A stretch of 64,000 nt of DNA. Origin: Longimicrobiales bacterium. Lineage in GTDB: Bacteria > Gemmatimonadota > Gemmatimonadetes > Longimicrobiales > Gaopeijiaceae. A program made the translations under genes and the position numbers. The stretch lies in assembly GCA_963664435.2 (NCBI GenBank), contig CAXXKM010000001.1, forward strand, positions 608,001 through 672,000, written 5' to 3'. Each line of letters opens with the position of its first letter. Position 1 is the stretch's first letter. Below, one piece after another: positions 1 to 19,876 of the stretch. A model generated the notes under the pieces. The model searched no databases. It had not been told where the DNA came from and was given only the letters and a program-made list of their open reading frames with translations.

Positions 1-151
1 CTCCGAGCAAGAGGATGCGGGAAGCCCTGCGCGGCCGCCTGGCCGCTTCGGACCCATGCCCGTTCGCCGAGGCCGGGTACCCGAGCCCGATACCGATACC
101 GCCGCCGGCCACGGCCGACAGCCGGAGAAAGTCGCGTCGATTCGTTGTCAT
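1..151 (-). CDS. 5' part of a Tat-signal protein, probably an NAD-dependent epimerase/dehydratase (runs off the window)
   Basis: Not in the ORF track. Manual translation from ATG at 151 gives MTTNRRDFLRLSAVAGGGIGIGLGYPASA...RILLLG: a twin-arginine RRxFL motif followed by the start of a Rossmann-like beta1 strand. Confidence 0.65.
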   Translation of the reverse strand, partial: MTTNRRDFLRLSAVAGGGIGIGLGYPASANGHGSEAARRPRRASRILLLG

Positions 152-215
152 CGAGTTCGTGATCCAGTCTGAGGGTGAGTTCGGTGATGCAGGTGCAGGC
201 TGGGGAGGGGCTCGG

Positions 216-1622
216 TTACCGAGTCCCTTCCTCCGTGGCCGGGCGTTGCGAACTACGCCCGCCTTCCTTGTAGACGACGCCATCCTTCATGACGAAGTCG
301 ATGTCTTGCAGGAGGTCGATGTCGGCCAGCGGGTCGCCCTGCACTGCCACCAGGTCGGCGACCTTGCCTGGCTCCACGCTTCCCAGTTCCTCCGTGCGGT
401 GCAGCACGATGGCGGCCTCCCGGGTAGCGGCGAGAATCGCCTGCATCGGCGACATTCCGACGTCCACCAGCAGACGGAACTCGCCCCCGTTCTCCCCATG
501 CGGGAAGACTCCGGCGTCCGTTCCGAAGCCGATCTTCACACCCTCCCGAACGGCCAGCTGGATCGACTCCCGGAAATACGGATAGATCTCCAGGGCCTTC
601 TCTCCCGGCAGCCCCGTGAGTGTCCCCGCCAGCGCCCGCTCCCGGACATTCTCGAACGCCATCATGGTGGGAACCAGGTAGGTGCCGTGCTCGTCCATGA
701 GCCGGACAGTCTCCTCGTCAAGCATCGAGCCATGGTCGATGGTGGTGACGCCCGCACGCACGGCCGCCTTGATTCCTTCGAGGCCGTGGGCGTGGGCGGC
801 CACCGTACGGTCGGCCATTTTGGCGGTCTGAACGAGGACGACCATCTCCTCCTCCGTGAACTGCTGCACGCCAACGGCGTCGCCCTCCGACAGCACGCCG
901 CCGGTCGCGCAGAACTTGATGAGGTCCGCGCCATACTTGATCTGGTAGTTCACCGCCTCGCGCACGTTTTCGATGCCCTGGGCGATGCCCTTCTCGATCC
1001 CCGGCTCCTCGAAGATGTCCGGGCGGTAGCCGTTGCTGTCGCAATGCCCCCCGGTGATCCCCAGGGAGTAGACTGCGGTGTACATCCGCGGGCCCGGCAC
1101 AAGGCCGCGGTTGATGGCGTCCCGGAGCGCCACGTCGGCGAAGTTGTCGGCTCCCACGTTGCGTACGGTGGTGAAGCCGGCCTCGAGGGTGATGCGCGCG
1201 TTCATGACCCCCACGATGGCCAGGTGCCCCGGCCAGCGATGCAGGCGGCTGTCGCGGCTTCCGTCCCCGCTGGTGAGGTGCGTGTGCAGGTCGATGAGGC
1301 CCGGCATCACGGTATGGTCGGACAGATCGATGCGGGTCGCCCCCGACGGGACCGAAATGTTCTCGCCAACCGCCTCCAGGCGGGTGCCGCGCACCAGAAC
1401 GGTGACGTTCTCGCGCACGCTTCCGTCCACCCCGTCGATGAGGCGGCCAGCCGTAATCGCGGTCACGTCGGTGCTGTCGGGGAGGGTCACCCGCTGGGCA
1501 GCGAGGCCCGCGGGACCGGCGGTCCACACAGCCGTCAACACGAGCGCGAGCAGTATCCGGATCCGGTTGGCCGAGGCTCGCTCTTTCGGATGGCCACTCA
1601 TTCCATTTGCCTGTTTCGCCAT
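216..1622 (-). CDS. Secreted metal-dependent amidohydrolase (Xaa-Pro dipeptidase-like)
   Basis: Signal peptide; motifs PGLIDLHTH, LIKFCATGG, AAHAHG, DHG, GTDAG, GKVADLV; AGGAGAGG RBS. Confidence 0.9.
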   Translation of the reverse strand: MAKQANGMSGHPKERASANRIRILLALVLTAVWTAGPAGLAAQRVTLPDSTDVTAITAGRLIDGVDGSVRENVTVLVRGTRLEAVGENISVPSGATRIDLSDHTVMPGLIDLHTHLTSGDGSRDSRLHRWPGHLAIVGVMNARITLEAGFTTVRNVGADNFADVALRDAINRGLVPGPRMYTAVYSLGITGGHCDSNGYRPDIFEEPGIEKGIAQGIENVREAVNYQIKYGADLIKFCATGGVLSEGDAVGVQQFTEEEMVVLVQTAKMADRTVAAHAHGLEGIKAAVRAGVTTIDHGSMLDEETVRLMDEHGTYLVPTMMAFENVRERALAGTLTGLPGEKALEIYPYFRESIQLAVREGVKIGFGTDAGVFPHGENGGEFRLLVDVGMSPMQAILAATREAAIVLHRTEELGSVEPGKVADLVAVQGDPLADIDLLQDIDFVMKDGVVYKEGGRSSQRPATEEGTR

Positions 1623-1732
1623 GGTCCTCTCCTCATTTCATTGCGCCGCCGGTTCCACTTGGCCCGGACGGATCACGGACCTCCAGGCCCGCGCGCGACC
1701 GCGTACATATACCGCCCAGCCGACGTAAACGG

Positions 1733-3154
1733 CTAGTCTCTCCAGGGGGCGTCGGATACGGGACGCGAGGGGTCGATCCCCGGGCCCTTGTACTGAACAC
1801 CCCCCTTGATCACATGGATAACGTTGTTCTGTTGCAGCGCACTCATGTTCCGCAGGGGGTTCCCGTTCACCACGATGATGTCAGCGAGCTTTCCGGGCTC
1901 GAGCGTGCCGAGATCGTCCAATGCGCCATACAGCAGCGCCGGGTACCGCGTTGCCATGCTGATGACCTTCATCGGCGGGATGCCGTAACGAACGAAGAGG
2001 TCCATCTCCTGCCAGGTCGACTCGTAGTGGAAGTTCATCGGGGTGCCCGAATCGGTCCCGACCACGAGTCGAACCCCGTTCTCGTACAGCTGTCTCACCT
2101 TCGCGGGATGATGCCGGTTGGCGTTCTTCGCGCCGGAAAAGTAGTTGAGCCTGCTGAAGTGGTTCAGCGAACTGCGGATATCCTCGTACATGTCCGGAGG
2201 CAGATCGGCCCGTAGCTGGGGGTTGTCCAGCCGCTCCGGATACTCGGTGGTGATGTCGTAGATCTTGCTCACCAAGGATGTCACGGAGGCAACGATGCCG
2301 TTCTCCGCGATGAGGCGCAACGCCTCCTCCGGATAGAGCGGATAGGAACCGCCACCCATGTGCTCGATGGAGCCCACCCCCATCTCCGCCGCCGCGCGCA
2401 CCTCCTCGACCGACCGCGCGTGCACGGCCATGTGCAGCCCGGCCCGGCGGGCCTCGCCCGCGATGGCCATCCGTTCCTCCGGGCTCAGCTCGGCCAGCTG
2501 GATGACCTTGATGACATCCACTCCGGCGTCCACGAGCTGGCGCGCCTTGCGGGCGGCATCCTCCGGCCCATCGACGGTCCAGCGAACGAACGCCTGGGTG
2601 CGGTAGTCGTAGCGCGTCCCCTGGGGAACCGGCAGGCTCTTCTGCAGAAACGGTCCCGAGACGAAGAGCCGCGGGCCGGCCATTCGGCCCGCGTTGATCT
2701 CTTCGCGTACCCAGATGGCGTCTTCGAGGGGAGCACCCAGGTCGCGGGCGGTGGTGACGCCCGCCATCAGAAGCTGGCGGGCGGAGATCTCCATGATCTC
2801 CCGCCAGCGGCCCATGTAGCGCGGAAAGTATTCGTCGTAGACGCCGTGACCCATGACGATCAGGTGGGCGTGGGCCTCGTTCAGCCCCGGCATGACCGTC
2901 AGCCCGTTTGCATCGATCACCCGGGCACCCGCCGGAATCTCCGTGTCGGAAACCGTCCCGACATGGGTAATGCGGTCCCCTTCGACGAGGATTACCGAAT
3001 TCTGGATCGGGACTCCCTCATGGCCATCGATCAGCACGCCGCCCACGATGGCGAGCTGGCCCGGAGCCTGACCCTGGAGGGCGGGGGAACGGCTCGAAAC
3101 CAGAGCCAGCGTCCCCATTCCTACGAGCCCGCACACCCGCAGATAGTTCTTCAT
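1733..3154 (-). CDS. Secreted amidohydrolase
   Basis: Signal peptide; PGLNEAHAH, VIKV, VHA, EHMG, GTDSG, GKLADII; GGAGG RBS. Confidence 0.9.
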   Translation of the reverse strand: MKNYLRVCGLVGMGTLALVSSRSPALQGQAPGQLAIVGGVLIDGHEGVPIQNSVILVEGDRITHVGTVSDTEIPAGARVIDANGLTVMPGLNEAHAHLIVMGHGVYDEYFPRYMGRWREIMEISARQLLMAGVTTARDLGAPLEDAIWVREEINAGRMAGPRLFVSGPFLQKSLPVPQGTRYDYRTQAFVRWTVDGPEDAARKARQLVDAGVDVIKVIQLAELSPEERMAIAGEARRAGLHMAVHARSVEEVRAAAEMGVGSIEHMGGGSYPLYPEEALRLIAENGIVASVTSLVSKIYDITTEYPERLDNPQLRADLPPDMYEDIRSSLNHFSRLNYFSGAKNANRHHPAKVRQLYENGVRLVVGTDSGTPMNFHYESTWQEMDLFVRYGIPPMKVISMATRYPALLYGALDDLGTLEPGKLADIIVVNGNPLRNMSALQQNNVIHVIKGGVQYKGPGIDPSRPVSDAPWRD

Positions 3155-3223
3155 GCCTGGCCTCCCAGTGTCCGGGCTGACGTCATATGCCGGATTCCCG
3201 GCCGCTCACTCGCTGCCCTGGGG

Positions 3224-4648
3224 TCAGTCCCGGCGCGCGTCGGCGTCGGAGACCGGGCGCGTCGTTTCGATGCCGGGGCCCTTGTACTCGACACCGCCCT
3301 TGATGACATGGATCACGTTGTTCTGCTCCAGCGCGGCCATGTTCCTCAGCGGATTCCCGTTTACGACGATGATGTCGGCGAGCTTGCCCGGCTCGATGGT
3401 GCCGAGATCGTCGAACTCCCTGTAGAGCAGCGCCGGGAACTTGGTCGCCATGCTGATGACCTTCATCGGCGGAATGCCGTAGCGTACGAACAGGTCCATC
3501 TCCTGCCACGTGGACTCGTAGTGGAAGTTCATCGGGGTGCCCGAATCGGTGCCGATCACGAGACGGATGCCGTTCTCGTAGAGTTGTCGCACCTTGGCCG
3601 GGTGATGGGCGTTCGAGTCCTTGGCGCCCGAGAAGTAGTTGAGCCTGCTGAAGAAGTCCAGTGATCTGCGCACGTCCTCGTACATGGCGGCCGGCAGATC
3701 GGCCTTGAGCTGCGGATTGTCCAGCCGTTCGGGGTATTCCGTCGTGATGTCGTAGACCTTGCTGACCATGGAGGTCACCGACGCCACGATGTTGTTGTCC
3801 GCCATCAGGCGAATGGTCTCTTCCGGGTAGAGCGGATAAGGACGTCCTCCCATGTGCTCGATGGAGTTGGCTCCCATCTCCGCGGCCTGCCCAACCTCCT
3901 CTATCGTACTGGCGTGTACCGCGATGTGGAGCCCCGCCTCGCGGGCGACCTCGCCGATGGCCATCCGCTCCTCCCGCGTCAGCTGGGCCAATTGGATCAC
4001 CTTCAGGAGATCCACTCCGGCATCCACCAGCTCTTGCGCCTTGCGGCGGGCGTCCTCGGGTCCGTCCACGGTCCAGCGGAAGAACGCCTGCACCTGGGAG
4101 TCGTAGCTGGTCCCCTGGGCGCCCGGGAGGCTCTTCTGCAGGAAGGGGCCGGACACGAACAGGCGCGGCCCCAGCATGCGGCCGGCGTTGATTTCGTCCC
4201 GGATATACAGGGCGTCCTCCAGGGGAGCGCCCAGGTCACGCGCCGAAGTCACGCCCGCCATCAGCAACTGATGGGCGGAGATCTCCATGATCTCGCGCCA
4301 CCGGCCCATGTAGCGGGGGAAGAACTCGTCGTAGATGCCGTGCCCGATGATGAAGAGGTGAGCGTGGGCTTCGTTGAGCCCCGGCATGACCGTCAGCCCG
4401 TTTGCATCGATCACCCTGGCTCCCGCCGGAATCTCGGTATCCGACACGGTTCCCACGTGGGTGATGCGGTCGCCTTCCACGAGCACCACCGAATTCTGAA
4501 TCGGCACCCCCTCCTGCCCGTCGATCAGGTACCCCCCCACGATGGCCAGCTGATCCGGGGCTTGCGCCGACACCTGCTCCGGAGGGTTCAGTGCCACCCA
4601 GCCCAGCAGAATACCCATTGCGGTCAGCAACTCTCGCTCGATTCTCAT
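3224..4648 (-). CDS. Secreted amidohydrolase, close paralog of 1733-3154
   Basis: Start moved to ATG 4648 (AAAGGAG RBS). Same motifs as the neighbour, with long identical peptide stretches. Confidence 0.9.
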   Translation of the reverse strand: MRIERELLTAMGILLGWVALNPPEQVSAQAPDQLAIVGGYLIDGQEGVPIQNSVVLVEGDRITHVGTVSDTEIPAGARVIDANGLTVMPGLNEAHAHLFIIGHGIYDEFFPRYMGRWREIMEISAHQLLMAGVTSARDLGAPLEDALYIRDEINAGRMLGPRLFVSGPFLQKSLPGAQGTSYDSQVQAFFRWTVDGPEDARRKAQELVDAGVDLLKVIQLAQLTREERMAIGEVAREAGLHIAVHASTIEEVGQAAEMGANSIEHMGGRPYPLYPEETIRLMADNNIVASVTSMVSKVYDITTEYPERLDNPQLKADLPAAMYEDVRRSLDFFSRLNYFSGAKDSNAHHPAKVRQLYENGIRLVIGTDSGTPMNFHYESTWQEMDLFVRYGIPPMKVISMATKFPALLYREFDDLGTIEPGKLADIIVVNGNPLRNMAALEQNNVIHVIKGGVEYKGPGIETTRPVSDADARRD

Positions 4649-4706
4649 GCTCACTCCTTTTCGCCTTGCCCGGCCTCGGTAGCAGGTAGCACCCCGGGGC
4701 ATGAAA

Positions 4707-6074
4707 TCACTTGTACCTCACACCATCCTTGACGACCATCCGCACATAGCCCAGAACGTTGATGTCAAAGAGCGGATTGCCCTCGACAACGATGATGTCG
4801 GCCAGTTTGCCGGGTTCTATCGTGCCCAGATCCCTGCCCATGCCCATTACCTCGGCCCCCGTCTTGGTCGAAGCCGAGATCGCAGCCAGCGGACTCATTC
4901 CCGAGTCCACCAGGGCGGAGATCTCTCTCCAGGCGGCTTCGGTGTGAAAGTTCATGGGAGACCCCGAATCGGTACCCATTGCGATGACCGCGCCCCCGTC
5001 GATGAACTGGCGGGCGGCGATCTCGGAGTTGCGAATCTGACGCGGGGTCGTGCGAAAGTACGAGTTCCTGTGGAAGTCCTCGAAGGAACGCTGGAACTCG
5101 CCGTAGAGGTCGGGTGGCAGGTCCTCCTTGAGACGGGAGTCCTGCAGCCGCTCCGGGAACTCCAAGGTCGCGGGATAGACCCAGATCCGATGAGCAATGG
5201 TCTGTACGATCGGGATCCCCCGGTGCGCGATCTCCGTGATCAGGTCGTCGCTGTAGGGCGGATTGCCACCCGACCCGGCATGCTGGATGACATCCGTTCC
5301 CGCGCGGATCGCCGCCCACATGTCCTCGGGAGCGTAGAGATGGGTGTGGACCTCGATGCCCCGCCGGTGCGCGGCGTCGACAACCGCCCGCATGTCGTCT
5401 TCGCTCATCCCAGCCCAGATCTTGATCAGGTCGACCCCGGCATCGATGAGGTCGTCCGTCTGTTCGGTAGCCTCTTCGGGAGAGGTGATGCGACGCTGGA
5501 ACCAGGGTGGGAACTGCTGCCCCACGCGCGTGATCCAGGGGCCGCTGACCAGCATGCGGGGTCCTGGAAGCCGACCCTCGTTGATGTCGTCGCGCACGTT
5601 GAGGATCTCGAGCGGCGCACCCAAGTCGACGGCGGTGGTGACACCGGCCATCAATAGCTGTCTGGCCGAGATGGCCATCATCTCTTCCCTGGCCCCATCG
5701 AGAATCGGCCACCACTCGGCGTATTCGCCATGGCCGAGGATCATCAGGTGGACGTGGAGATCGACTAGGCCGGGAAGCATGGTCATGCCCTCGGTATTGA
5801 CGATTTCCGCTCCGGCCGGAATCTCTACGTCGCTGGCAGGTCCCACGGCGACGATGCGGTTGCCCTCGATGACCACGGCCGCGTGATGGATGGGAGGCGT
5901 CTCGTATCCGTCGAGGAGCATCCCGCCCACCAGCGCCATGGTACCCGACCCTCCCTGCGCGGCGACCGGCGCCGGCAGAACAATGCTCAGCAGAATGCCC
6001 GCTATCAACGGAGTCGCTGCTCGGACCTTTTGGGGGTGCGGTTTCTTCATTGGTTTTCTTCCTTGCGTGTGCAT
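4707..6074 (-). CDS. Secreted amidohydrolase, more distant paralog
   Basis: Signal peptide ending PVAAQ; DLHVH, LIKIW, VHTH, IQHAG, GTDSG. Alternative start at 6050. Confidence 0.9.
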   Translation of the reverse strand: MHTQGRKPMKKPHPQKVRAATPLIAGILLSIVLPAPVAAQGGSGTMALVGGMLLDGYETPPIHHAAVVIEGNRIVAVGPASDVEIPAGAEIVNTEGMTMLPGLVDLHVHLMILGHGEYAEWWPILDGAREEMMAISARQLLMAGVTTAVDLGAPLEILNVRDDINEGRLPGPRMLVSGPWITRVGQQFPPWFQRRITSPEEATEQTDDLIDAGVDLIKIWAGMSEDDMRAVVDAAHRRGIEVHTHLYAPEDMWAAIRAGTDVIQHAGSGGNPPYSDDLITEIAHRGIPIVQTIAHRIWVYPATLEFPERLQDSRLKEDLPPDLYGEFQRSFEDFHRNSYFRTTPRQIRNSEIAARQFIDGGAVIAMGTDSGSPMNFHTEAAWREISALVDSGMSPLAAISASTKTGAEVMGMGRDLGTIEPGKLADIIVVEGNPLFDINVLGYVRMVVKDGVRYK

Positions 6075-6170
6075 ACGCCTCCCCGCATCAGCGACGCCGG
6101 GTCACACCCGCGGGTCCGTGATGGATCCGGACGATGTGGACACCGGCGTCGTCGAACCGTCACTTCTGGC

Positions 6171-6192
6171 AAAAAAAGCCGCAACGGCGGCT
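6171..6192 (-). terminator. Rho-independent terminator
   Basis: Minus strand AGCCGC-cgtt-GCGGCT followed by a T-run, about 50 nt after the stop at 6242. Confidence 0.65.
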
Positions 6193-6241
6193 GCTCCGGC
6201 CGCGGACGCTACACCATACGACCGCGGCCGGAGTCGCGAAA

Positions 6242-7465
6242 CTACGTGCTCCCGCCCGCCTCGGGTGACACCACGCCGGCCTCGATATGCCGGTCTCCGG
6301 CGACGTAAACGTCGCACCCGAACATCGCGAAGTGGGTGTGATTGGGCGCGATGCGCGACGAGTAGCCGAGCCCGGAATACCCTGCTCCGGCTCCCCCAAG
6401 TCCGTGCCCGAAGTTCATCCCAAGGGAATAGAGCAGGCTTCCCTCCTTGTTGTGGTGGAAGTGGCCGACGTCGCCCGGCCCTCCCAGCTCGGTGTTCTCG
6501 TGCGTCCCCCAGCCGAAGTGGCTTATGCCGAACGCCTCCCGGTCGTTGTAGGAATTCAGAAGCGTTTCGAACTCCTGCGCACGCCTGCCTCCCTCGACGC
6601 GGGTGACATAGCCGCCCTCGAAGTGGAGGGTCACGGCTTCTTCGAGAACCTGGGGATGCAGATCGGTGATGATGTCACCGGGTTGAAGGACCAGTACCCC
6701 TTCCGCGGTGTCCTCGTTCGGGCCGCATGCCACACAGCCGTAGCCGAAGTTGTCCCAGCGGCCGGCCATGTCGGCGATGCCGTACTGGGCGTGACCCGGA
6801 CGGTCCTCCATCGAGCAGCGCCAATCGGAGCCGGCGTCGCTGACCACCCGGAGTTCGCCCCGGGTCTCGTCCAGCAACTGGGCGCCCCGGAGCGTGCGCT
6901 CCCGCCGCTCTGCTGTCGGGAAGTAGCGCTGCTGACGCGGCACGTCGTAGCCGAGCGCCAGCCATCGGGTCTTGTGCCCCGGCCGGTTGATGGCCTCGAA
7001 GTCCGTGCGGTAGGGGTGGTCGCCCACCTTGTTGCCATATGCTGTCGACGCGCCCGGAAGACCGATGTCGTTCCCCAGATTCGAGGTAATCAGCAGGTCA
7101 GCTTCCGCATAGGCGTTCCAGTGCCACGCGCTCAGCGCGCTCTCGTACTGACCGGCGCTGTTGATTCTCGGGAAGACCGAGATGTGGGCCCCGGTCGCCC
7201 CGATCTCGCCCGCTGCCGTGAGTAGTGCCAGCAGGTAGTCGTGGTCGAAGACCATGGGCGTGGCCACTATGAAGAGTTCGCCCTCCCGCAGCAGATTCTG
7301 TTCGAGAATCCTCTTGCAGTGGGCGACAAGGGGCGAGGGTGGCTCCGGGCGTGCGTTCAGGTCATCCGTGGTGGAGACCAGTGGGTCGGCAGACGCGGGA
7401 ATGGCCATTAGCGAGGACCCTGCCCCCGCGGCTCCCACGATCTTGACGAAGTTGCGTCGTTTCAT
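6242..7465 (-). CDS. Tat-exported NicX-like protein (2,5-dihydroxypyridine dioxygenase / aminopeptidase T fold)
   Basis: MKRRNFVK...PASA Tat signal; GRWDN, GPNE, PGDI, GYVTRVEGG, ISHFGWG resemble NicX; C-terminal HTH where the family has HxD. Confidence 0.7.
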   Translation of the reverse strand: MKRRNFVKIVGAAGAGSSLMAIPASADPLVSTTDDLNARPEPPSPLVAHCKRILEQNLLREGELFIVATPMVFDHDYLLALLTAAGEIGATGAHISVFPRINSAGQYESALSAWHWNAYAEADLLITSNLGNDIGLPGASTAYGNKVGDHPYRTDFEAINRPGHKTRWLALGYDVPRQQRYFPTAERRERTLRGAQLLDETRGELRVVSDAGSDWRCSMEDRPGHAQYGIADMAGRWDNFGYGCVACGPNEDTAEGVLVLQPGDIITDLHPQVLEEAVTLHFEGGYVTRVEGGRRAQEFETLLNSYNDREAFGISHFGWGTHENTELGGPGDVGHFHHNKEGSLLYSLGMNFGHGLGGAGAGYSGLGYSSRIAPNHTHFAMFGCDVYVAGDRHIEAGVVSPEAGGST

Positions 7466-7534
7466 GCTTACCTCCTGCGGCTGGATGTTTCACTGCTTTC
7501 CAAGCACTGGTCGGACGGTGTATGACCTCCGGGC

Positions 7535-8776
7535 TCAGTTCAACGGAGGCCGACCGGCCTGCAACTCGGCGATCGGTACATAGTCGAAATCGAATCCGAA
7601 GTGGCGCGGACCGATGATGTCGATGCCTGCCGGCGTCAACCACTCATCGTGGCCGCGGACGCCAACCATCGCCACTTCCATTCCAATTGGATATCCACCC
7701 AATCCCCCGCCGGTGATCGCATGCCCGGTTTCGGGATCGAGATTGAAAATATAGTCCGGGGAAATGACATCGAGCTCGCCGTCCAACCACGATACGATGT
7801 TCTCGTTCTTGACGAAGATCTCGTAGGTGTGGCCCTCGAATTCGCCTACCCCGGCGAGCTCCGCGTCCGTCCAGCTGAAGCCGCGGTCGCCGCGCTGGTC
7901 GGACCTGGTGACGATGCCCTGGAAGAGCTTGTACCCGCCGGTCAATTCGATCAGGGCTGCAATCGGGTCGTTCCCCTGCTCGCGGGCCTCGCGCACAGCG
8001 CGACCGAACTCGATGGCCTCGGTGAGGGCCCCCGTGATGGTTCCGCGCTTCACCTCCGCGCCGGTCATGGGGTTCATCGCAATGGACGCGCCCCCGCCGC
8101 TGCTCACGGCCACACCGCGCGCAAGGTCCTCCGCCCGATAGTCGTCCACGCCTTCGATGACCACTTGGTCGCCCCAACGCGTGACCAGGGCGGAAGGGGT
8201 GGAGGGAATGCCGACCAGCCAAGGAATCTGCTGCTGGATCTCCGGGCGAGCCCGCACCGACAGGCAGGCATCGACCAGCGGAGCCCCCATGTCGGAGGCG
8301 AGCATCAGCGCCTGAACGGTCGCGCCCGCGGACTCGAGGCGCAGTACCGCGTTGAATTCCACCCCCATGTGATCGGCAAGAAGCTCGACTGACCTGAGGT
8401 TGGTGCCTTCGACGCGCTCCAGTCCCTGCGCTTCCGTGCGCTCGATCACGTGCTCCCAGGCACCGCCCCCACCGACGCCGGCGGTACCCACCGCCATCCA
8501 GTCGTCGGGAAGATCCTCCGCGGAAACGATCTGGAACTCCGCTCCCTCGGCCATGGCCGCGCTCACGCGCTCGATGTAGTTGGCCGTGCTGCAGCCGCGG
8601 GTAGCCTGGATGCAGGATCCGACCAGCATGTCGATGACTTCCTGCTGGCTGAGCGTGCGCGTCTCGGGCATGTCCCGAGCGGCATCCGTCCCGGGATCCG
8701 CCGGCGCACAGGCGCCGACCATCACAAGCAGCAACACGAGCAGCCAGACGGTTTCTTTGCATGTTGGACGGTTCAT
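7535..8776 (-). CDS. DUF917-like lipoprotein
   Basis: Lipobox MVGAC; VDA..RARPE, LFQG, GFSW, KNEN, SPD and GPRHFGFDFDY fit DUF917 as I recall it. Confidence 0.7.
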   Translation of the reverse strand: MNRPTCKETVWLLVLLLVMVGACAPADPGTDAARDMPETRTLSQQEVIDMLVGSCIQATRGCSTANYIERVSAAMAEGAEFQIVSAEDLPDDWMAVGTAGVGGGGAWEHVIERTEAQGLERVEGTNLRSVELLADHMGVEFNAVLRLESAGATVQALMLASDMGAPLVDACLSVRARPEIQQQIPWLVGIPSTPSALVTRWGDQVVIEGVDDYRAEDLARGVAVSSGGGASIAMNPMTGAEVKRGTITGALTEAIEFGRAVREAREQGNDPIAALIELTGGYKLFQGIVTRSDQRGDRGFSWTDAELAGVGEFEGHTYEIFVKNENIVSWLDGELDVISPDYIFNLDPETGHAITGGGLGGYPIGMEVAMVGVRGHDEWLTPAGIDIIGPRHFGFDFDYVPIAELQAGRPPLN

Positions 8777-9630: not shown

Positions 9631-9656
9631 CCCCCCGGTTCCGTGAACCCGGCGGG

Positions 9657-10817: not shown

Positions 10818-10933
10818 GTCTTGTTCTCCCTTATGCGGGTCTTTGTGCCTGTGCCGTCACAGGCTCTCGATTAATCCAGTGTGTCTATCGGTCTTCCCGT
10901 TTTCCGGTCGGGGGGTTAACGCGCGCTCCCGGT

Positions 10934-12283
10934 TCATCCTCCGGAGTACTGCAGGCCCGGGATGTTGTCGATTTCGCGTTGCGGCAGCGCCCGGCACGTC
11001 TGACTCCCCACCGGCACTCCCTGGGGCACCTCGTCGTGGAACAGGTTGAGGTTGTACTTCTCGAGGTAAAGACGCGTGTCGCCCATTAGCGTCCCCTCCA
11101 GATACAGGCTCCTCCGGCGCTCGTCGATCAGCTTGTCGCGGATCTCATTGGGACCCATGTCCATCGGCGTCCACTGAACCTCGAGGCCGCGGTGCGCCCG
11201 CAGGTCATTGATGATCTCCACAGCGCGGTCGTCATGCATCATGGAGAGTTCCGCCTCCGCAATGATGTACTGCATCTCAACACCGGAGGTGATGATGAGA
11301 GGAGTTGATCCCGATGGCACCTTCATTGGTGCGTACACGTCGAAGAAGTCACCCCGCGGAGGAACTGGGTTGTGCACGGTTGCGGTTCGCGGATCGGGCA
11401 TATCGGTATCGTCGACGGTGAGATCGAGGAATGCGGGTGAGACCGAGTGTTCGCCGAATCCCCAGGTCCTGAACCATATGCGGTTGGTCTGCTCGAACGT
11501 ATTGGTGGAATAGGTTGCATGGAATTCGAAGTCCACGGGCACCTGTTCCGCGTACTGCACAGCCTGGGCGTCGTTACCCAGAAGCCTGTTCACCCGCGCA
11601 AGGCCGGCGATGGCCGCGAGGCGAATCTCCTCCTCCGCTCCCGAAGCTCCCATCGCGGCCTGGAACTGCTCCACCGCCATCTCGTATCCTCTACGCGAAG
11701 AATGGACCGGCCCTTCTCCATAGAGCACGAATTCACAGTAGAAGTTGGCCAGCCATACGAGTTCGAACCCGTTGTAAACCGATACGCGCGCGTATTCCGC
11801 CGAACTCGACGGATTGGAAATCGACTCGAATTCCCCGGCCAGGATGCGCTCTTGGGCGTTGTGCGACGAGGCGATCGCCTGTTGAAGGAATGCATAGTAG
11901 GCAACGCCGGGACCACGCCGGTCCCGTCCGCCACCCGTGAGTCCGCCGGCCTGGCCTCCGCCCCGGTTGATCTGCCGCAGTGATTGCGTGTAGCGAAGCA
12001 GCCCGAGAGCGACCATTCCGCCTGAGAACATGTTGGTCTCGTACATCCACACGTCGTAAGCGAAGTTGAGGTCCACCAGAGCGCCCACCATTGTCTCCGA
12101 CAACTGCGCCGGGTTGAGGCTGGCATCCACGTAATGCGGATCGGGCGCGACTTCGAGCAGACCCTCGCACGCTGGCGTCACCGTGATGGCGGCCGCCATG
12201 GCGAGGAATCGAACGCCGAGTCCCACCTTCTTCCGCCGGACTTTTCCGTCATCGAGATAATTGTTCATAGCCTGGCTCTCCAT
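10934..12283 (-). CDS. SusD/RagB-like outer-membrane lipoprotein
   Basis: Lipobox-like TPAC; EMQYIIAEA, INDLRA, ERRRSLYLEG, LPQREIDN; directly downstream of the SusC-like gene. Confidence 0.8.
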   Translation of the reverse strand: MESQAMNNYLDDGKVRRKKVGLGVRFLAMAAAITVTPACEGLLEVAPDPHYVDASLNPAQLSETMVGALVDLNFAYDVWMYETNMFSGGMVALGLLRYTQSLRQINRGGGQAGGLTGGGRDRRGPGVAYYAFLQQAIASSHNAQERILAGEFESISNPSSSAEYARVSVYNGFELVWLANFYCEFVLYGEGPVHSSRRGYEMAVEQFQAAMGASGAEEEIRLAAIAGLARVNRLLGNDAQAVQYAEQVPVDFEFHATYSTNTFEQTNRIWFRTWGFGEHSVSPAFLDLTVDDTDMPDPRTATVHNPVPPRGDFFDVYAPMKVPSGSTPLIITSGVEMQYIIAEAELSMMHDDRAVEIINDLRAHRGLEVQWTPMDMGPNEIRDKLIDERRRSLYLEGTLMGDTRLYLEKYNLNLFHDEVPQGVPVGSQTCRALPQREIDNIPGLQYSGG

Positions 12284-12347
12284 ATTTCCAATTCTCCTGG
12301 ATTCACGTCTTCAACGGGGCATCTCATCTTCCCTTGCCTGATTGCCC

Positions 12348-15300
12348 TCAGAAAGCCAATTGAACGCGAGCGAGCCAGCGCCTTACCTGGCCCTCGCCGT
12401 AGAATTCCTCGTTGGCGGGATATGCGGTCCTCCCTCCTGGTGTAATCGTCTCCGGGTCCAGCCCTGTGTAGTTGGTCCAGGTCAACAGGTTCCTGCCGCC
12501 GATCGCGATGGTCGCGGAGGAGGCACTCAGGAATTCTAGGTACCCGGGAGGCACGTCGAAGGACAGCGTCAACTCCCGCCAGCGGATGAAGCTTCCGTCC
12601 TCGACGAAAACGAATGTCCGCCAGCGGCCTCCGTCTACCAGCGATCTCTCCATCCCCGCCTGCTGTGCGGGCGTCATCCTGGACTCGCGGAAAGCGTAGT
12701 GCCAGGTCGCCGCATGGTCGCGGCCGAAGCTCACATGGAAGTTGTCGGAGCTGTTGTTCTTCTTGACATCGCCCTTGCGGTCGATAAGCGACGAGAGCCT
12801 GAGCCGGCCCCCGAAGAAGGAGAGCGTAGTTGAGAGGTTCTCGAAGTCGCCCGCCTGAGGGCTGCCCAAGAATGAGTCGTCGCCATTCAGGTCGCCGGGC
12901 TTCACCACGATGCTCCCGTCCACGATCTGGCCCGACGCGTCACGCTGTGCGCTCTCGATGACGGGCCCATAGTAGGCCCCCGGGGGGAATCCCTCGATGA
13001 AAGCGCCCCGATTCGATCCCAGGAAGAGCGGAGGCGTGTCGCCGAGATCCGTTACGATGGGGTCCTGCGTGGAAAGCCTGAAGTCCACATCCCAGGAGAA
13101 ATCGGGGGTGTTGACCAGCTCGGCCCCCACCGACAACTCGAAGCCCTTGTTCGTCAGTTCGCCGACGTTGACCCACTGCTCACCCCGGAATCCCAGGGAG
13201 GGCGACAGGAAGCGTGTGACGATGGCGTCGGTCGTCCTCTGCTGGAAGTACGTGAGTTTCACCGCTAGTCGGTCCTCCAGGAGGCCTACGTCGACCCCGA
13301 CCTCCATCTCAGACTTCCTCTCGGCGCTCAGTTCCGGATTGCCCGGATAGGCCGCGGAGATGCCGGCCACCTGGTTGCCACCCACTTCCAGGCTCACCGG
13401 AAGCAGCCTCTGAATCGCCGCCGAAGGGGGCGGAGCCTGCGCGGCCGTGCCCCAAGCGAAGCGGAGACGCATGCTGTTGACGGTTTCGTAGTTCCAGAAG
13501 GGCATGTCACTGAGCACCGCGGAGGCGTTGAAGCTGGGAGACCAGATTCCGCCCCGCTCCACGCCGAAGGCACTGTTGTCGTCGAATCGGATTCCGCCGG
13601 TCGCGTACAGATAGTCCCGATAGCCGAAGCGCTGCTGTGCATAGGCGCCCGCCTCGACTCGTTCGATCAGGTTGGAGAAGCCGGTTCTGATCAGCGCCGC
13701 GTCGCAGGCCGTGGCCGTGGGGCTGGCGAAGCCGCCCTCCCCAATGCAGGCCACCAACTCCGTGCGCTGCCCGAAGTACTGCGCACCGACCGTGGTCGTC
13801 GTAGCGAGATCGGGCATCAGGTCCGCAGTCACCGTCGCAGTGTACTCGAGGGTCCTGTTGACGTCGGTGGTGCGCTGATCGCGCAGGTATCCGGCCGAGA
13901 GCACGCCGAAGGGACGACCTTCGTCCAGGGGGAACTCGTTGATGTCCTTCATCTGGGAATGGTCGATACCGGCGATGGCTCGGTTCGTCAGCCAGGACAA
14001 CGGGCTCCAGCGGATCGTCGCGCTTCCTACGAACCGCCCCGTCTGCTGGCCGCCGAACACCGTGTTCAGGTTGTCGAAGTTTGAGACCAGGTTCCCCTGG
14101 CGAAGTTCACAGGTGGACGGGTTGGCTCCGTTCACGAGCGTGCCCAGGCAATCACCGCGGCTGCCGTCCGACCGAACCCCGAAGGAGTTGATGGGCGCTC
14201 CGGCACCTGCGTTCGTGGAGTAGCCGCGGAAGCTGCGCGAGGATTCGGGGAACTGAACGTCCGACTCCAGATAGTTCGTGTTGACCGAAACCTCGAAGGC
14301 CTCGCTCGTCCTCGCGGTAATGTTTGCACGCAGGGAACCCTGCTGGAGGTTATTCGTGGGATAAGGTCCGTCGGCACTGTTCCAGCGGCCGGAGACGAAG
14401 TACTGGATGTCCTGTCCGCCTCCGCTGACGCTCAGCGTCGTGTTCGCGAAGGGTCCCCTGCGGAGCGGACTGGTCAGCGGGTTGGTCATGGAGTTGTTGA
14501 AGCCCCAGACATCCCCGGTCACGTCGTTGGTGATCGCATTCCACTGCTGCGCCACCGGGTCGCTGGCGCTTGTGATGCCCATGTGCTTGGTGAAGTTGTA
14601 CCACTTGTCCCAATACGAGGCGATGTCCTCGACGAAGCCGAATTCCGAGTTGATGGACACGCGGTGGTTGTCCGTTTCGCCCCTTCGGGTCTCGATCAGG
14701 ATCACCCCCGAAGCCGCGCCGGCTCCATACAGAGCCGTTGCCGTGGGCCCCTTAATGACCTGCACGCTGGCGATGTCGGCGGGGTTCAGATCGTCGAGAC
14801 GGGACACCGTCCGGCCTTCCGTCCAGTCGATGGACTCCGGGCCGAGGTCGGTCTGGTTGTTTGTCCGTATGCCGTCGATGATGATGATCGGATTCGCTCC
14901 CTGGGTGAGGCTGGTCACGCCTCTTACGCGGATCCGGGACGCGGTTCCTACGGGACCCGAGCCCATCTGCACATCGACTCCGGCGGCCCGGCCGCTCAGG
15001 AGGTCCGACACGCTGGCGACGGCGGCTCTTTCGACTTCCGCGGCTGCATCGAATCGTTCGATGTCGGTGCCGAACTCCATGCGTCTGGCCGCCACGGCAT
15101 CCACCGAAACGACAATTTCCTCCAGATCGATCGCCACCGAGGCCATCGCGAAGTCTGCGGTCGTCGCCTGGTCGGCGGTGACGGTGATGGACTGTTCGAT
15201 CGCGGAGTATCCGATCTGCTCCGCCCGCAGGACATGCTCTCCCAAGGGCAGGTTCAACAGAAAGCGGCCGTCCTGATTGGTGACGGTTCCGAGCTGACTT

Positions 15301-15473
15301 TCCGGAACGTAGACCTGCACTCCAACCAGGGGCCGCTGCGTGTCCTCATCCGTCACCACGCCGGTCACGATGCCCTGTGCCTGCATGGCTGTAGCCGATG
15401 CAGGCAACAGAAGAAGACCCGCTGCGACGGCGACCAGAGCCGCCCCTTTTCGGCTCACGGCATATCTCGTCAT
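12348..15473 (-). CDS. SusC/RagA-family TonB-dependent receptor
   Basis: Start at ATG 15473 (GGAGG RBS); CarboxypepD_reg-like N-terminus; IRVRG, LNPADI..KGPTATALYG..ASGVILIET; GNPEL; NLLTWTNYTGLDPE; terminal Phe. Confidence 0.9.
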   Translation of the reverse strand: MTRYAVSRKGAALVAVAAGLLLLPASATAMQAQGIVTGVVTDEDTQRPLVGVQVYVPESQLGTVTNQDGRFLLNLPLGEHVLRAEQIGYSAIEQSITVTADQATTADFAMASVAIDLEEIVVSVDAVAARRMEFGTDIERFDAAAEVERAAVASVSDLLSGRAAGVDVQMGSGPVGTASRIRVRGVTSLTQGANPIIIIDGIRTNNQTDLGPESIDWTEGRTVSRLDDLNPADIASVQVIKGPTATALYGAGAASGVILIETRRGETDNHRVSINSEFGFVEDIASYWDKWYNFTKHMGITSASDPVAQQWNAITNDVTGDVWGFNNSMTNPLTSPLRRGPFANTTLSVSGGGQDIQYFVSGRWNSADGPYPTNNLQQGSLRANITARTSEAFEVSVNTNYLESDVQFPESSRSFRGYSTNAGAGAPINSFGVRSDGSRGDCLGTLVNGANPSTCELRQGNLVSNFDNLNTVFGGQQTGRFVGSATIRWSPLSWLTNRAIAGIDHSQMKDINEFPLDEGRPFGVLSAGYLRDQRTTDVNRTLEYTATVTADLMPDLATTTTVGAQYFGQRTELVACIGEGGFASPTATACDAALIRTGFSNLIERVEAGAYAQQRFGYRDYLYATGGIRFDDNSAFGVERGGIWSPSFNASAVLSDMPFWNYETVNSMRLRFAWGTAAQAPPPSAAIQRLLPVSLEVGGNQVAGISAAYPGNPELSAERKSEMEVGVDVGLLEDRLAVKLTYFQQRTTDAIVTRFLSPSLGFRGEQWVNVGELTNKGFELSVGAELVNTPDFSWDVDFRLSTQDPIVTDLGDTPPLFLGSNRGAFIEGFPPGAYYGPVIESAQRDASGQIVDGSIVVKPGDLNGDDSFLGSPQAGDFENLSTTLSFFGGRLRLSSLIDRKGDVKKNNSSDNFHVSFGRDHAATWHYAFRESRMTPAQQAGMERSLVDGGRWRTFVFVEDGSFIRWRELTLSFDVPPGYLEFLSASSATIAIGGRNLLTWTNYTGLDPETITPGGRTAYPANEEFYGEGQVRRWLARVQLAF

Positions 15474-15507
15474 ACCAACCTCCGTTGTACGGGTGGATCG
15501 GGAAACT

Positions 15508-15929
15508 CTACCTACAGAAGACCGCTTCGAAGCCCGGACCAAGTCCTCCGCCTCGACGGGTTGTTACGAGGATGATTCCGCCGAAATGCCCGAGCCGTAG
15601 CGAAGGTTGCTTTCCTGGGTACTCAGGAATTCAATCTCGCCGACGTCCGAGGCGGCGATGGAGCGCAGAAAATCCAGCTCCCCGACATCAACCCCATCCA
15701 TGTACACCCTGGGGTATGCGGGACGCGGATCGCTCACTGAGATCGGACCGCGGGAAATCAGCCAGCCTCGGCGAAGTTGGCGTACGAGGTCATGGGCGTT
15801 GGTGGCGGAGGCGGAAGCGATCTCCGAGGATTGGATGGTGCCCGTACGCCTAGCGCTGCTGCCCGTCTGACGACCGGCACAGGACAACAAACCTGCCAGA
15901 ACCACAAGAACCACCACGCCTCGGAGCAT
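15508..15929 (-). CDS. Small lipoprotein with a stand-alone TonB plug-like domain, apparent frameshift near 15590
   Basis: Lipobox LLSC; VYMDG, DVGEIEFL, RYG. The plug-type ending HFGGIILVTTRRG lies in another frame and ends at TAG 15510-15508. Confidence 0.65.
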
Positions 15930-15939
15930 GGACGGACCC

Positions 15940-16262
15940 CCCTTGGTGGCCGACCTACCTCCAGCCCGCGTACTTCCCCGGCGTGCAGCACCTCCAGCGC
16001 CGCAACCTCAGCGTCCGGAGCCCTGCGGTGCGCGCCTGCCGACGAGCTCCCGTCCCGAAGACCCTCCCGTCCCTGCGCCTCGTACCGGATCACCCCGCGC
16101 CGGACCGTGCGTTCGCTCATCCCCAGCACCCCGCCCGCCTCTACCTGCGTTACCCGGTTTCGACCGCCATCGAAAAGCTCGCAAACCTCAGAATACGCAC
16201 TTCGAGCAGCACGTCCATCCGGTTCATACAGCCTCGCCGTCGGCCGCCCCAAAACCGGACAA
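15940..16262 (-). mobile_element. Degenerate ISNCY (IS1202-like) transposase 5' remnant
   Basis: ATG 16227 gives MNRMDVLLEVRILRF; after a frameshift, VTQVEAGGVLGMSERTVRR..RYEAQGREGL..RRAPDAEV (HTH). A TGTCCGGTTTT end-type motif lies at 16251-16261. No DDE domain. Confidence 0.7.
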
Positions 16263-16297
16263 TGGAAATACGAGGAGTGTGGTCCGGTCCAAGACGG

Positions 16298-18589
16298 TCA
16301 AAACGACCAGAGTCTGGTGAGCTTGACCGTGAACCGGCGGTCGAGAACGCCGCCTGTGGCTGTGTTGCGCCGTTCCGTGTAGACGAGAAACAGATCGCTC
16401 AATGGAGCATGGATGTAGTCCAGGCGGACGTTCGTGATGAGTTCGTCGGTAACCCCGTTGTACTGGATGAAGCCGCTTCCGAAGAGCTCGGTCGAGTAAG
16501 CGTACTCCACACGGCCTCGATAGATCTTCGCCGAGAAGGGCCCATCTCCAAGATCGATGCGGTTATCCTGCGCACCTGCGTCCAGCGTGACGTGGTGATT
16601 CGCCTTCCACTGTGCTCCGAGTCGAAGAGAGCGGCGCGTTCCTCCGAAGTACCCGCCCTCGCTGAACCCCAGCATCGCCGAAAAGACGCGCCCGGTACTC
16701 GTCTGCAGATCGAGGACGCGCTCCCCGAAGCTGTAGGCGCCATCCGGCACGATCCTGTCGCCGAGGAGGCGGAAGGGTTCGAACAGCCTTTCGAAGCGAT
16801 CGTTGTACTGCAGCGTCAGGCGGCTCCCGTCCGAGAGTGTTGTGATGAATCCGGCGGTGCCGGTCCGGGTTTCCAGCACGGAAGCCAGGTTGGTGATGTA
16901 GTGCATTTCCAGGAAGGGGTTGAGCTCGTTCAGAAGTGATTCGGCCCGCCGATGATGGACGCCGACGGTGGCGTAGCCGTGGCGGACGGCTTCCCGGCGC
17001 ACGTATCCCATCTCAGGCCTGAAGGCGTCTCCGATCTCACGGAACATCAACGACGTGTTCAGGAACTGGTCGCGCCAGGCGATGGAGACACGGGCCGCCC
17101 GGTTGTTTCCTCGCTCTCCGTCATCGATGGTCCCCGCGAGGTACGACTGCACGATCATCCTGTCCCAGAAGCGTGCATAGAGATCCGCTCCGAGGCTTCG
17201 ACTGTATCCGCCCCCCCGGCTCTCCTCCGTGATGTTCCGATTCAGGAACATGCCCCCGATCTGGAAATTGCCGAACACCGTTCGCCGGAGGCGCAACGCG
17301 GTGAAGTTCTCGGCAGCTACATCCTCGATGCCCCTCGTCTGCATGTTGAGGAATCCGACTCCCCAGTCCCCGACTCTTCCGGTCAGCCGGCCTCCCCCGA
17401 GCACCGGAACAGGACGTCCGCCTTCAAGTCCGATTCGGCGCGAGTGGAACAGCTTGAAGTCCTCGAGCCCGGCTCCCAGTCGATATCCTCTCTCGGGCAG
17501 GTCGCCGAAGTCGAACAGCCCTGCGTTCTCGACGAAGAAGTCCCTCTTCTCCGGAAAGAAGAGCGAAAAACGAGTCAGATTCACCTGTTCGTCGTCCACT
17601 TCGACTTGTGAGAAGTCGGTCCGGTAGGTCAGGTCCAGGGCCAAGCCCTGGCTGAGGGCATACTTGACGTCCAAACCGGCATCGAAATCCGTGGCGTCGC
17701 CCTCGACGGCGGCTTCTCCCGATGATCTCGCGGTAAGCGCAAACGGCTTTACCAGGAGGTTCAGGCCTCCGCTCATGGCCGGAAGGCCCTCGAGCGTGCC
17801 CGCTTCGGACATGCGGTTCAGGCTGTAACGCCGGTCGATGGGCGCCCAGAAGCTGTCCTCACCCTTGTGGCGCAGGCGACGGACGAAATTCAGGCCCCAG
17901 GGCCGGTCAGGCTGGTTCGGGTCGAAGCGGAGAGTACTGAAGGGAACAGCGAGTTCAGCCGTCCATCCCTCTTCGTGGACGCGCACTGCCCGGTCCGCGA
18001 TTCCGTCCCACGCAAAGTTGATGTCGCGGCCGTTGTCGAAGGTCTGGAGGTCGACCATCGCTCCGCCGGCATTGACGCCGAACATGAAGGCGTTGCTCCG
18101 GTCCAGGTACGTATCGAAAGCGATTCCCAGAATGTCGCCTTCGCCGGAAGGGAAATCCCTCTTGAGGGAATGAAGCGTGATGTCGCCGGGATCCTGATAG
18201 TACAAGGTCGCCCCGACGTAAAGCGTTTCGTCGTCATACAGGACGCGGATCTCGGTGTGCTCGCTAGAGGGGTATCCCGCGTTCGGCTTGGACTGCACGA
18301 ACCCCGTAATGATCTCTGCCTCGGTCCAGCTTGGCTCGTTCAGAAACCCGTCCACGGAGATTGGGCCCGAGGCGCGCCGTGCGAGGACGCTGGGCCGTGG
18401 TAACGATTCAGGATCGACGCCGATCTGCGCGGGCACGCTGTCGGGTGGTGGGGCGTCTTGAGATAGCGCCGTCGCGGGTTCTGAAAGTGCCAGCGCGAAC
18501 AGCACGATGGCCCAGGAACGTAGGCCTCCGGGTCCCTTGGAGGGACTCCTCCGTAGTGCCGGGGCCAAACAGCTTGACAACGCATCCAT
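16298..18589 (-). CDS. CBM9-like / DUF5916 outer-membrane protein
   Basis: VDGFLNEPSW, YDDETLY, WTAELAVPF, DFSQVEVD, EKRDFFVE, FHSRRIG; terminal Phe. Start uncertain. Confidence 0.85.
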   Translation of the reverse strand: MDALSSCLAPALRRSPSKGPGGLRSWAIVLFALALSEPATALSQDAPPPDSVPAQIGVDPESLPRPSVLARRASGPISVDGFLNEPSWTEAEIITGFVQSKPNAGYPSSEHTEIRVLYDDETLYVGATLYYQDPGDITLHSLKRDFPSGEGDILGIAFDTYLDRSNAFMFGVNAGGAMVDLQTFDNGRDINFAWDGIADRAVRVHEEGWTAELAVPFSTLRFDPNQPDRPWGLNFVRRLRHKGEDSFWAPIDRRYSLNRMSEAGTLEGLPAMSGGLNLLVKPFALTARSSGEAAVEGDATDFDAGLDVKYALSQGLALDLTYRTDFSQVEVDDEQVNLTRFSLFFPEKRDFFVENAGLFDFGDLPERGYRLGAGLEDFKLFHSRRIGLEGGRPVPVLGGGRLTGRVGDWGVGFLNMQTRGIEDVAAENFTALRLRRTVFGNFQIGGMFLNRNITEESRGGGYSRSLGADLYARFWDRMIVQSYLAGTIDDGERGNNRAARVSIAWRDQFLNTSLMFREIGDAFRPEMGYVRREAVRHGYATVGVHHRRAESLLNELNPFLEMHYITNLASVLETRTGTAGFITTLSDGSRLTLQYNDRFERLFEPFRLLGDRIVPDGAYSFGERVLDLQTSTGRVFSAMLGFSEGGYFGGTRRSLRLGAQWKANHHVTLDAGAQDNRIDLGDGPFSAKIYRGRVEYAYSTELFGSGFIQYNGVTDELITNVRLDYIHAPLSDLFLVYTERRNTATGGVLDRRFTVKLTRLWSF

Positions 18590-18772
18590 GGAGTACAACG
18601 TATCGCGTGTGCACGCGCGCCGGACAGCCTGTTCCGAGCGGTCCCGGGCCACCCCTTGCGGCGACCACCCCTACCCTGTTACCGAATAGACACCGAATCT
18701 CAAACTCCGACGTCACCGGGAGCCTGGCGCAAGTGTCGGGCCTCCCGGGACGCTGGCGGACCAGCCATCCCC

Positions 18773-19837: not shown

Positions 19838-19876
19838 GCGGAAACCGACCGGCTGCCGCCTGCGGCCCGGGCGCCC

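Follow-up and report, generated by a model that had tools for sequence, protein, structure and literature searches.

Gene content, co-inheritance and predicted function of a SusC/SusD locus with putatively exported NicX-fold, DUF917 and amidohydrolase proteins in a Longimicrobiales bacterium

We analyzed a 64,000-nucleotide stretch of the genome of a Longimicrobiales bacterium from the phylum Gemmatimonadota (assembly GCA_963664435.2, contig CAXXKM010000001.1, positions 608,001 to 672,000), here termed the window, and in particular the locus at its left end, in which a SusC/SusD pair lies beside two NicX-like proteins, a DUF917 protein, a methyltransferase and a series of amidohydrolases. A preliminary description made from the sequence had drawn this locus as thirteen co-oriented genes for the uptake and periplasmic ring opening and deamidation of an N-heterocyclic or peptide-like compound. 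We confirmed thirteen co-oriented genes, of which twelve are complete minus-strand open reading frames (ORFs) between positions 216 and 18652 and the thirteenth is only partial at the window edge. The family labels given earlier hold for DUF5916, SusC, SusD, the methyltransferase, DUF917, the four amidohydrolases (AH1 to AH4) and the two NicX relatives (NicX1 and NicX2). The features of the locus, and of a second, unlinked block on contig C3 of the same genome (G000), are as follows:

16298..18652, minus strand: DUF5916 protein (Pfam), with a general secretory (Sec)-like signal and a weak CBM9-like N-terminal domain; accessory, lost in G017
15930..16297, no strand: 368-bp gap between the DUF5916 and small lipoprotein genes
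15564..15929, minus strand: 121-aa lipoprotein, for which the earlier label 'plug' is unconfirmed; conserved upstream of SusC in G194, G436 and G437
12348..15542, minus strand: SusC/RagA-family TonB-dependent transporter (TIGR04056), likely start ATG 15473
10934..12283, minus strand: SusD-like lipoprotein, with a profile match to SusD structures and a lipobox
9657..10817, minus strand: NicX1, a putative metalloenzyme of the NicX fold with a twin-arginine translocation (Tat) signal; match to PDB 7cn3
8773..9630, minus strand: class I S-adenosylmethionine (SAM) methyltransferase (Pfam), without signal peptide
7535..8776, minus strand: DUF917 lipoprotein of the thiohydantoin-desulfurase fold (PF06032 and PF20906), from a signal-bearing clade
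6242..7465, minus strand: NicX2, a Tat-signal NicX-fold protein; match to PDB 7cn3
6177..6240, minus strand: GC-rich hairpin after the NicX2 stop, found in five congeners, without covariation
4707..6074, minus strand: AH1 amidohydrolase (Amidohydro_1), Sec-like signal, metal motifs intact, likely start 6050
3224..4702, minus strand: AH2 amidohydrolase (Amidohydro_1), Sec-like signal, likely start 4648
1733..3154, minus strand: AH3 amidohydrolase (Amidohydro_1), 80% identical to AH2
216..1622, minus strand: AH4 (Amidohydro_1), relative of Cc2672-like carboxypeptidases/dipeptidases
1..151, minus strand: 5' end (first 50 codons) of a Tat-signal epimerase-type Rossmann gene, which ends beyond the window at G000:C1:607012
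G000:C3:1493428-1504717 (L022:5428-16717), outside the window: C3 block, with DUF5916, HyuA, HyuB, an S9 lipoprotein peptidase, a halogenase and amidohydrolase AH6

Inspection of motifs and hydropathy agrees with the earlier statement that all products except the methyltransferase carry predicted export signals. NicX1, NicX2 and the Rossmann protein have a Tat RRxF motif; the 121-aa lipoprotein, SusD and DUF917 have a lipobox; and DUF5916, SusC and AH1-4 have Sec-like N-termini. Signal peptides were judged from these two properties only, and the hydropathy cut is weak, the cytoplasmic HyuA scoring 1.70. The DUF5916 gene starts at GTG 18652 or ATG 18589, and the end of the methyltransferase gene overlaps the start of the DUF917 gene by 4 bp. 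A Pfam scan of the 121-aa lipoprotein gave no family support for its 'plug' label. Part of the gap at 15930-16297 is probably a decayed insertion-sequence transposase N-terminus, going by its motif. Two sequencing runs, one of which is perhaps the source sample, cover all 30 bins of the stretch with no listed differences.

The SusC protein scores 428.5 bits against the TIGR04056 cut-off of 368.25. SusD is weak by itself (PF07980, E 0.015; no sequence match of the single sequence in the PDB), and a profile of seven SusD sequences matches SusD structures at E 2e-9. As in RagAB of Porphyromonas gingivalis, the pair would serve non-glycan, peptide-linked uptake; RagB reaches no better than E 0.25 against the SusD profile. 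RagAB is not known to have an attached NicX, DUF917 or halogenase module. In Gemmatimonadota, susCD genes have been taken as markers of polysaccharide utilization loci (PMC10469786), and the accessible part of that paper contains no occurrence of amidohydrolase, halogenase or dioxygenase. The window locus resembles such loci, as they are presented there, in its tandem SusC/SusD genes followed by exported enzymes and, in the G437 version, in a GntR regulator upstream. It differs from them in having no carbohydrate-active enzyme (CAZyme) and in enzymes that are predicted to act on amides and probably on rings. A Pfam search of the thirteen genes for glycoside hydrolase, polysaccharide lyase and carbohydrate esterase families found none, as had been described earlier for glycoside hydrolases, so that SusC and an adjacent SusD are present and a co-located CAZyme is absent. 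The suggestion that this is a glycan locus with unrecognized CAZymes can draw on the SusC/SusD pair itself and on a sub-threshold CBM9_1 match in DUF5916 (E 0.005), but every enzyme was assigned to a non-CAZyme family and DUF5916 is dispensable, with 13 loci in this genome, which makes a glycan function scarcely credible.

This genome has 32 SusC-like tblastn loci and 14 SusD-family matches, together with 22 amidohydrolase and 37 S9 loci. Nine of the 17 near-full-length SusC loci have a gene of one of these two kinds within 10 kb. Amide hydrolases beside SusC are therefore common here, and a SusC/SusD pair without CAZymes is by itself ordinary in this genome. What sets the window locus apart is that it alone, among the 17, has NicX or DUF917. 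The same counts favor the view that the locus is nothing more than a mixture of exported hydrolases next to one SusC/SusD pair among many, kept by chromosomal synteny only, and the flanks are indeed as syntenic as the locus among congeners. Two observations detailed below largely refute this view and leave it very improbable: two unlinked blocks co-occur exactly, and they lie together, between other flanking genes, in four genomes from outside the genus.

Five of 18 congeners have a NicX1 ortholog (92-95%), and 42 other genomes of the family or order have none. SusD, NicX1 and the C3 halogenase are common to the same six of the 19 genus genomes, G000 included. Completeness is 90% or more and contamination 5% or less in twelve of the 13 non-carriers. 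The five congeners with NicX1 keep the gene order, but their flanking genes are equally syntenic; a lack of conserved order had been named in advance as a sign against the pathway, and the order is in fact kept beyond the genus. In all five non-carriers examined the core site is empty, with the radical-SAM flank gene adjoining AH1 and/or AH4 and the Rossmann gene. Close orthologs of AH2 and AH3 are confined to the six carriers. AH1 is also found in five non-carriers, and AH4 is kept in 4 of the 5 non-carrier congeners examined, yet accompanies the system in distant genomes. The Rossmann gene, present in 5/5 non-carriers examined and at four loci in this genome, is a flank gene and not specific to the system. 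Since AH1, AH4 and the Rossmann gene are also kept by congeners without the core, the thirteen-gene boundaries drawn earlier were wrong, and the unit as drawn also left out the co-occurring C3 block. As judged from gene content, the specific unit is DUF5916 through AH3, with a specific core of SusC-SusD-NicX1-methyltransferase-(DUF917)-NicX2-AH2/AH3. Among the carriers, G017 is without DUF5916, the 121-aa lipoprotein and the Rossmann gene, and G003 has frameshifts at the locus, perhaps assembly errors. In the flank-gene trees carriers are interleaved with non-carriers (G000, for instance, groups with G005 at support 0.997 for CocE) and so make up no clade, which implies that the genes were gained or lost together more than once.

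The C3 block has a parallel distribution. Orthologs of its hydantoinase/oxoprolinase HyuB occur in five of the six carriers and in none of the 13 other genus genomes, with a remnant kept in G015 (67% complete), and its insertion site is empty in 5/5 non-carriers examined. Its DUF5916 is 67% identical to the window copy. In searches of 401 genomes of the phylum, which scored 3-5 candidates per genome, only G000 and G194 gave the halogenase, and they alone had NicX-profile matches below 1e-110. The next matches, in G041 (1e-81) and G021 (1e-77), are both without a Tat signal and without the halogenase. The halogenase is present in all four outside-genus genomes (G194, G436, G437 and G438), in which the two halves are contiguous or nearly so between different flanks. 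Because of the co-occurrence of halogenase and NicX proteins and this contiguity in distant genomes, the C3 block is assigned to the window core, the two forming one predicted co-inherited system that is split over two loci in this genome.

The outside-genus clusters differ in detail. G194 has a run of the 121-aa lipoprotein, SusC, SusD, NicX1, methyltransferase and two NicX2 genes, with five amidohydrolase matches, AH4, DUF5916, HyuA/B and S9. In G436 the window order, including DUF917, is followed after two NicX2 copies by HyuA/B, S9, an M19 dipeptidase, an NCS1 permease and the halogenase, and the cluster also has a Glu/Leu/Phe/Val dehydrogenase. In G437 the whole set, together with the GntR gene, lies within about 47 kb. 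The G194 halogenase adjoins four further NicX paralogs, and that genome has 10 NicX matches in all, suggesting many related substrates. Such paralogy, together with import through a TonB-dependent receptor, amide hydrolysis in the periplasm and modifying enzymes in the cytoplasm, would fit a system that captures metal-chelating or toxic natural products (siderophores or alkaloids) and takes them apart for iron or detoxification, and not as a source of carbon and nitrogen. We consider that function improbable: the clusters examined have no reductase or iron ABC transporter, and hydantoinase A/B and the amino-acid dehydrogenase point to assimilation instead. The genes beside the G194 halogenase (G194:C1:1220388-1233524; L225, L226) comprise the four NicX paralogs, a copy of the methyltransferase, a Tat-like DUF3830 and an M20 peptidase; DUF3830 also follows the NicX2 paralogs in G436 (L224).

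Both NicX-like proteins match only 7cn3, the structure of the 2,5-dihydroxypyridine dioxygenase NicX, in a PDB sequence search (E 7e-42 for NicX1, 1e-31 for NicX2), and a structural model of NicX2 (predicted local distance difference test score, pLDDT, 89) matches it at E 3e-30 with a template-modeling (TM) score of 0.71. In NicX, according to the accessible part of PMC7910607, iron is bound by His265, Ser302, His318 and Asp320 and the substrate site has His105, Glu177, His189 and Arg293; the R293A variant loses activity and iron binding, and H105F stays active. NicX1 shares the fold and keeps the iron ligands (H304, S332, H356, D358) and the His189 equivalent; it replaces His105/Glu177/Arg293 with Y136/Q208/E323. 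NicX2 has Y/Q/N/H at the substrate-site positions (His189 to Asn, Arg293 to His) and lacks Asp320, with H378 instead; its serine column varies S/A/N among paralogs, the full iron set is therefore not found, and a His-rich site (H316/H338/S347/H376/H378) is predicted. By position, the eight-residue signatures read HEHHRSHD for the NicX type, YQHHESHD for NicX1 and YQNHHSHH for NicX2; NicX itself lay outside the alignment, the columns being anchored by PDB matches and signature rows, and the serine column was taken from the MAFFT signature rows. A FastTree phylogeny of 129 aligned proteins places the Tat motifs in two clades apart from each other: 35 of 37 NicX1-clade proteins (support 0.955) and 5 of 5 NicX2-clade proteins have one. 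Two separate Tat clades with altered active sites lead us to conclude that these are not NicX proper, from which the window proteins also differ in their SusC/SusD and amidohydrolase neighbors.

The next-best matches of the NicX2 model are M29 aminopeptidases (AmpS, PepS, AmpT) and the crocagin proteins CgnB/E, at TM scores of 0.52-0.54. Like NicX1 and NicX2, CgnB and CgnE are a paralog pair of related fold in a methyltransferase-containing cluster; CgnB has a Glu-rich dinuclear zinc site (PMC10070186, accessible part), as against the NicX-like sites of the Tat-bearing window proteins. The latter are His-based with one Glu, in NicX1, a comparison in which the CgnB ligands were mapped by motif spacing and not by alignment. 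These relatives bear on the possibility of purely hydrolytic scavenging of peptides or cyclic peptides, in which the NicX-fold proteins would be metallo-hydrolases or peptide binders rather than dioxygenases. Glu323 of NicX1, at the Arg293 position, would by motif spacing correspond to a CgnB zinc ligand, and the neighboring enzymes (AH, S9, M19, M24, M28, S15 and amidase) are of hydrolytic kinds. We regard this as an unlikely, if serious, alternative, given that NicX is by far the closest structure, that NicX1 keeps the His/Ser/His/Asp iron set, and that the peptidases here are Sec-type whereas the two NicX clades have each gained Tat. A more conventional gene was found in G041 (L033:6660-8503), where a cytoplasmic NicX-like protein has the signature HQHHRSHD; its neighbor resembles a maleate isomerase by its motif. 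The L033 locus is probably a conventional pyridine-ring pathway.

The DUF917 protein has both domains and the fold of the (S-methyl)thiohydantoin desulfurases (PF06032, PF20906; NF058532, NF058529; PDB 2o3i), the models being named for the thiohydantoin desulfurase reaction. Its structural model (pLDDT 88) matches 2o3i only (Z 34.5, root-mean-square deviation 2.7, 326 aligned); a single-sequence PDB search gave only a cupin match, which we judged spurious. It differs from the desulfurases in its lipoprotein/Sec signal and in scores far below the NCBIfam cut-offs (66.6 bits against 450 and 47.7 against 440), and Acidobacteriota paralogs score similarly low. Signal-like N-termini were found in 110 of the 110 testable proteins among the 120 best DUF917 homologs (10 were untestable), by a hydropathy test with a weak threshold and no negative control. 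A tie to hydantoinase/oxoprolinase is shared with the desulfurases: the cytoplasmic DUF917 gene adjoins hydantoinase A in both loci examined (L202 and L203, in G028 and G421), in keeping with the accessible part of bioRxiv 2023.09.25.559410, in which DUF917 is uncharacterised and hydantoinase-like. The G028 locus also has AroM and an OPT transporter.

Unlike the desulfurases, the signal-bearing DUF917 clade forms tandem arrays beside TonB receptors. We retrieved 124 loci with the exported-DUF917 alignment and set aside six close congener loci. Of the remaining 118, 15 have at least three DUF917 copies, and among these 15, 12 have a TonB receptor and 10 an extracytoplasmic function (ECF) sigma factor; the multi-copy loci with named records are from Acidobacteriota. 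Many other DUF917 loci are without such context, a TonB receptor being present in 15 of the 35 loci of at least 15 kb. The arrays in L047, L051, L056, L058, L059, L071, L126, L127, L145 and L146 have 3-7 signal-bearing DUF917 genes around a TonB receptor, and hold an ECF sigma factor, a conserved partner gene, and an amidase or M24/M28 peptidases. In L062, L079 and L084 the same unit of receptor and ECF sigma factor is combined with five AH1-type amidohydrolases and one DUF917.

All four amidohydrolases have intact metal motifs of a binuclear site (HxH, Lys, His, His, Asp), which they share with the Caulobacter Cc2672-type carboxypeptidases/dipeptidases (3mtw; NF051886). AH4 is a relative of these, aligning over its full length with 3mtw (E 3e-94), though it scores 452 bits, and AH1-3 179-190, against the NF051886 cut-off of 500. 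AH1-3 and AH6, the last likewise with its metal motifs intact, form a separate subfamily, in which AH1-3 are without the CATGG loop of the Cc2672 type and have the motifs HGxYxE(W/Y/F) and GTDSG(T/S)PMNFH. The methyltransferase family has 16 close members and then a gap down to 36%. The C3 halogenase scores 377 bits to PF04820, has no signal, retains the GxGxxG, catalytic Lys83 and WxWxIP motifs, and finds its best PDB match in a tryptophan 5-halogenase (E 5e-73).

These last two enzymes raise the alternative of an import-and-tailoring, or biosynthetic, route, in which an imported precursor would be trimmed, halogenated and methylated in the cytoplasm, and matured in the periplasm. The intact halogenase motifs with the tryptophan 5-halogenase match, the exact co-occurrence of the halogenase with NicX proteins, and a private methyltransferase family placed between NicX1 and NicX2 all speak for it, as does crocagin biosynthesis, which likewise pairs two relatives of this fold with a methyltransferase (PMC10070186, accessible part). 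We nevertheless think a biosynthetic route quite unlikely: the ORF lists of the contiguous clusters, in which short ORFs were not examined, contain no scaffold synthase, precursor peptide or exporter, hydrolases are the majority of the genes, and the methyltransferase is degraded in some copies.

The reading that we prefer, with a probability of roughly 0.5, is that the system imports a multi-amide N-heterocyclic compound through SusC/SusD, breaks it down in the periplasm and finishes with a cytoplasmic, ATP-dependent lactam opening. What we observed is the gene content, the signal motifs and active-site residues, the joint inheritance with the C3 block and the contiguity of the two in distant genomes; every reaction step we infer. 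SusD would bind the compound and SusC import it, after which the Sec-signal amidohydrolases and the S9 lipoprotein peptidase would cut its amide bonds, the expansion of paralogs perhaps reflecting side-chain variety. The Tat-signal NicX-fold proteins, metal-loaded before export, could then cleave an electron-rich N-ring; the Arg-to-Glu swap in NicX1 would favor a cationic ring or provide a further metal ligand. DUF917 might hydrolyze a cyclic imidazolinone, thiohydantoin or lactam-type group, and the cytoplasmic hydantoinase/oxoprolinase A/B would open the last cyclic amide with ATP. The halogenase and the methyltransferase stand outside this scheme and perhaps serve to modify or detoxify an aromatic fragment. 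As substrates we considered ergothioneine, collagen cross-links, sponge alkaloids and diketopiperazines, and none is claimed.

Several points weigh against this proposal. It would name a compound class only and no specific substrate, and a halogenase with intact motifs beside a methyltransferase is more typical of biosynthesis. The NicX substrate residues Glu177 and Arg293 are replaced in both proteins and NicX2 also loses Asp320, and since the same fold covers M29 aminopeptidases and crocagin CgnB/E, oxidative ring cleavage is uncertain. SusC is mostly deleted in the carrier G011, and a search for DUF917 in G194 did not find it; the parts are therefore not strictly interdependent. Only two of the six genus carriers reach the limits of 90% completeness and 5% contamination, the flank-gene trees are single-gene trees, and related genomes are not independent samples. 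Of the earlier claim of uptake plus a periplasmic ring-opening pathway, non-glycan uptake with exported enzymes is thus supported, and ring opening stays conjectural, the NicX residues being replaced and the DUF917 score lying far under the desulfurase cut-offs.

More tentatively, and with less than even odds, the system may represent a class of SusC/TonB-fed loci that use N-heterocyclic organic matter by periplasmic oxidative N-ring cleavage. Such a class would comprise two NicX-fold clades exported separately, of which one has a four-histidine site not known before, together with an exported DUF917 clade, an amidohydrolase subfamily of its own and an obligate tie to the halogenase, with a parallel Acidobacteriota version in which 3-7 DUF917 or five amidohydrolase paralogs lie around an ECF-regulated TonB receptor. 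No description of the system was found in the literature searched, most subscription papers being outside its coverage. The architecture is the known one of a SusC/SusD utilization locus; it departs from polysaccharide utilization loci in its non-CAZyme cargo, and its enzymes fall outside NicX and the desulfurase equivalogs. SusC/SusD counts serve as markers of polysaccharide use in the phylum (PMC10469786, accessible part), and the present system shows that the cargo enzymes of some pairs are not directed at glycans. If the preferred reading is true, it provides a concrete gene set for nitrogen-ring breakdown outside the cytoplasm. Candidate new enzymes are the Tat-signal NicX-fold clades with altered metal sites, the signal-bearing DUF917 clade, and a halogenase with defined genetic partners.

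At the locus itself, sigma-70 promoter matches numbered 0 against 2.6 expected, and terminator-like sites (8 against 9.8) were no commoner than chance. A terminator-like T tract (6192-6177) next to the NicX2 hairpin is present in this genome only. We rejected this hairpin before AH1 as proof of a transcript boundary, because the T tract is not conserved and the hairpin shows no covariation. The GC content of the locus is mildly low (0.63-0.66, against 0.67-0.70 across the next 10 kb), and GC at third codon positions falls inside the genome range; recent transfer is therefore not claimed from composition.

The right flank (window 18656-26888) is ordinary and syntenic across congeners, and encodes a PA0069-family radical SAM protein, a beta-lactamase-fold hydrolase, a further amidohydrolase, a 5'-3' exonuclease and a VPS10/BNR protein. 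To the left of the window, L001:3450-13867 encodes an ankyrin-like protein and a second SusC/SusD pair, after creatininase-family and S15 hydrolase genes, and is syntenic in congeners; it also has what we take to be DUF1592/DUF1552-like genes. A metagenome copy of the locus (L088) matches the window at 100% identity between NicX2 and AH4 but at only 84-97% across SusC to DUF917, a pattern that suggests recombination inside the locus.

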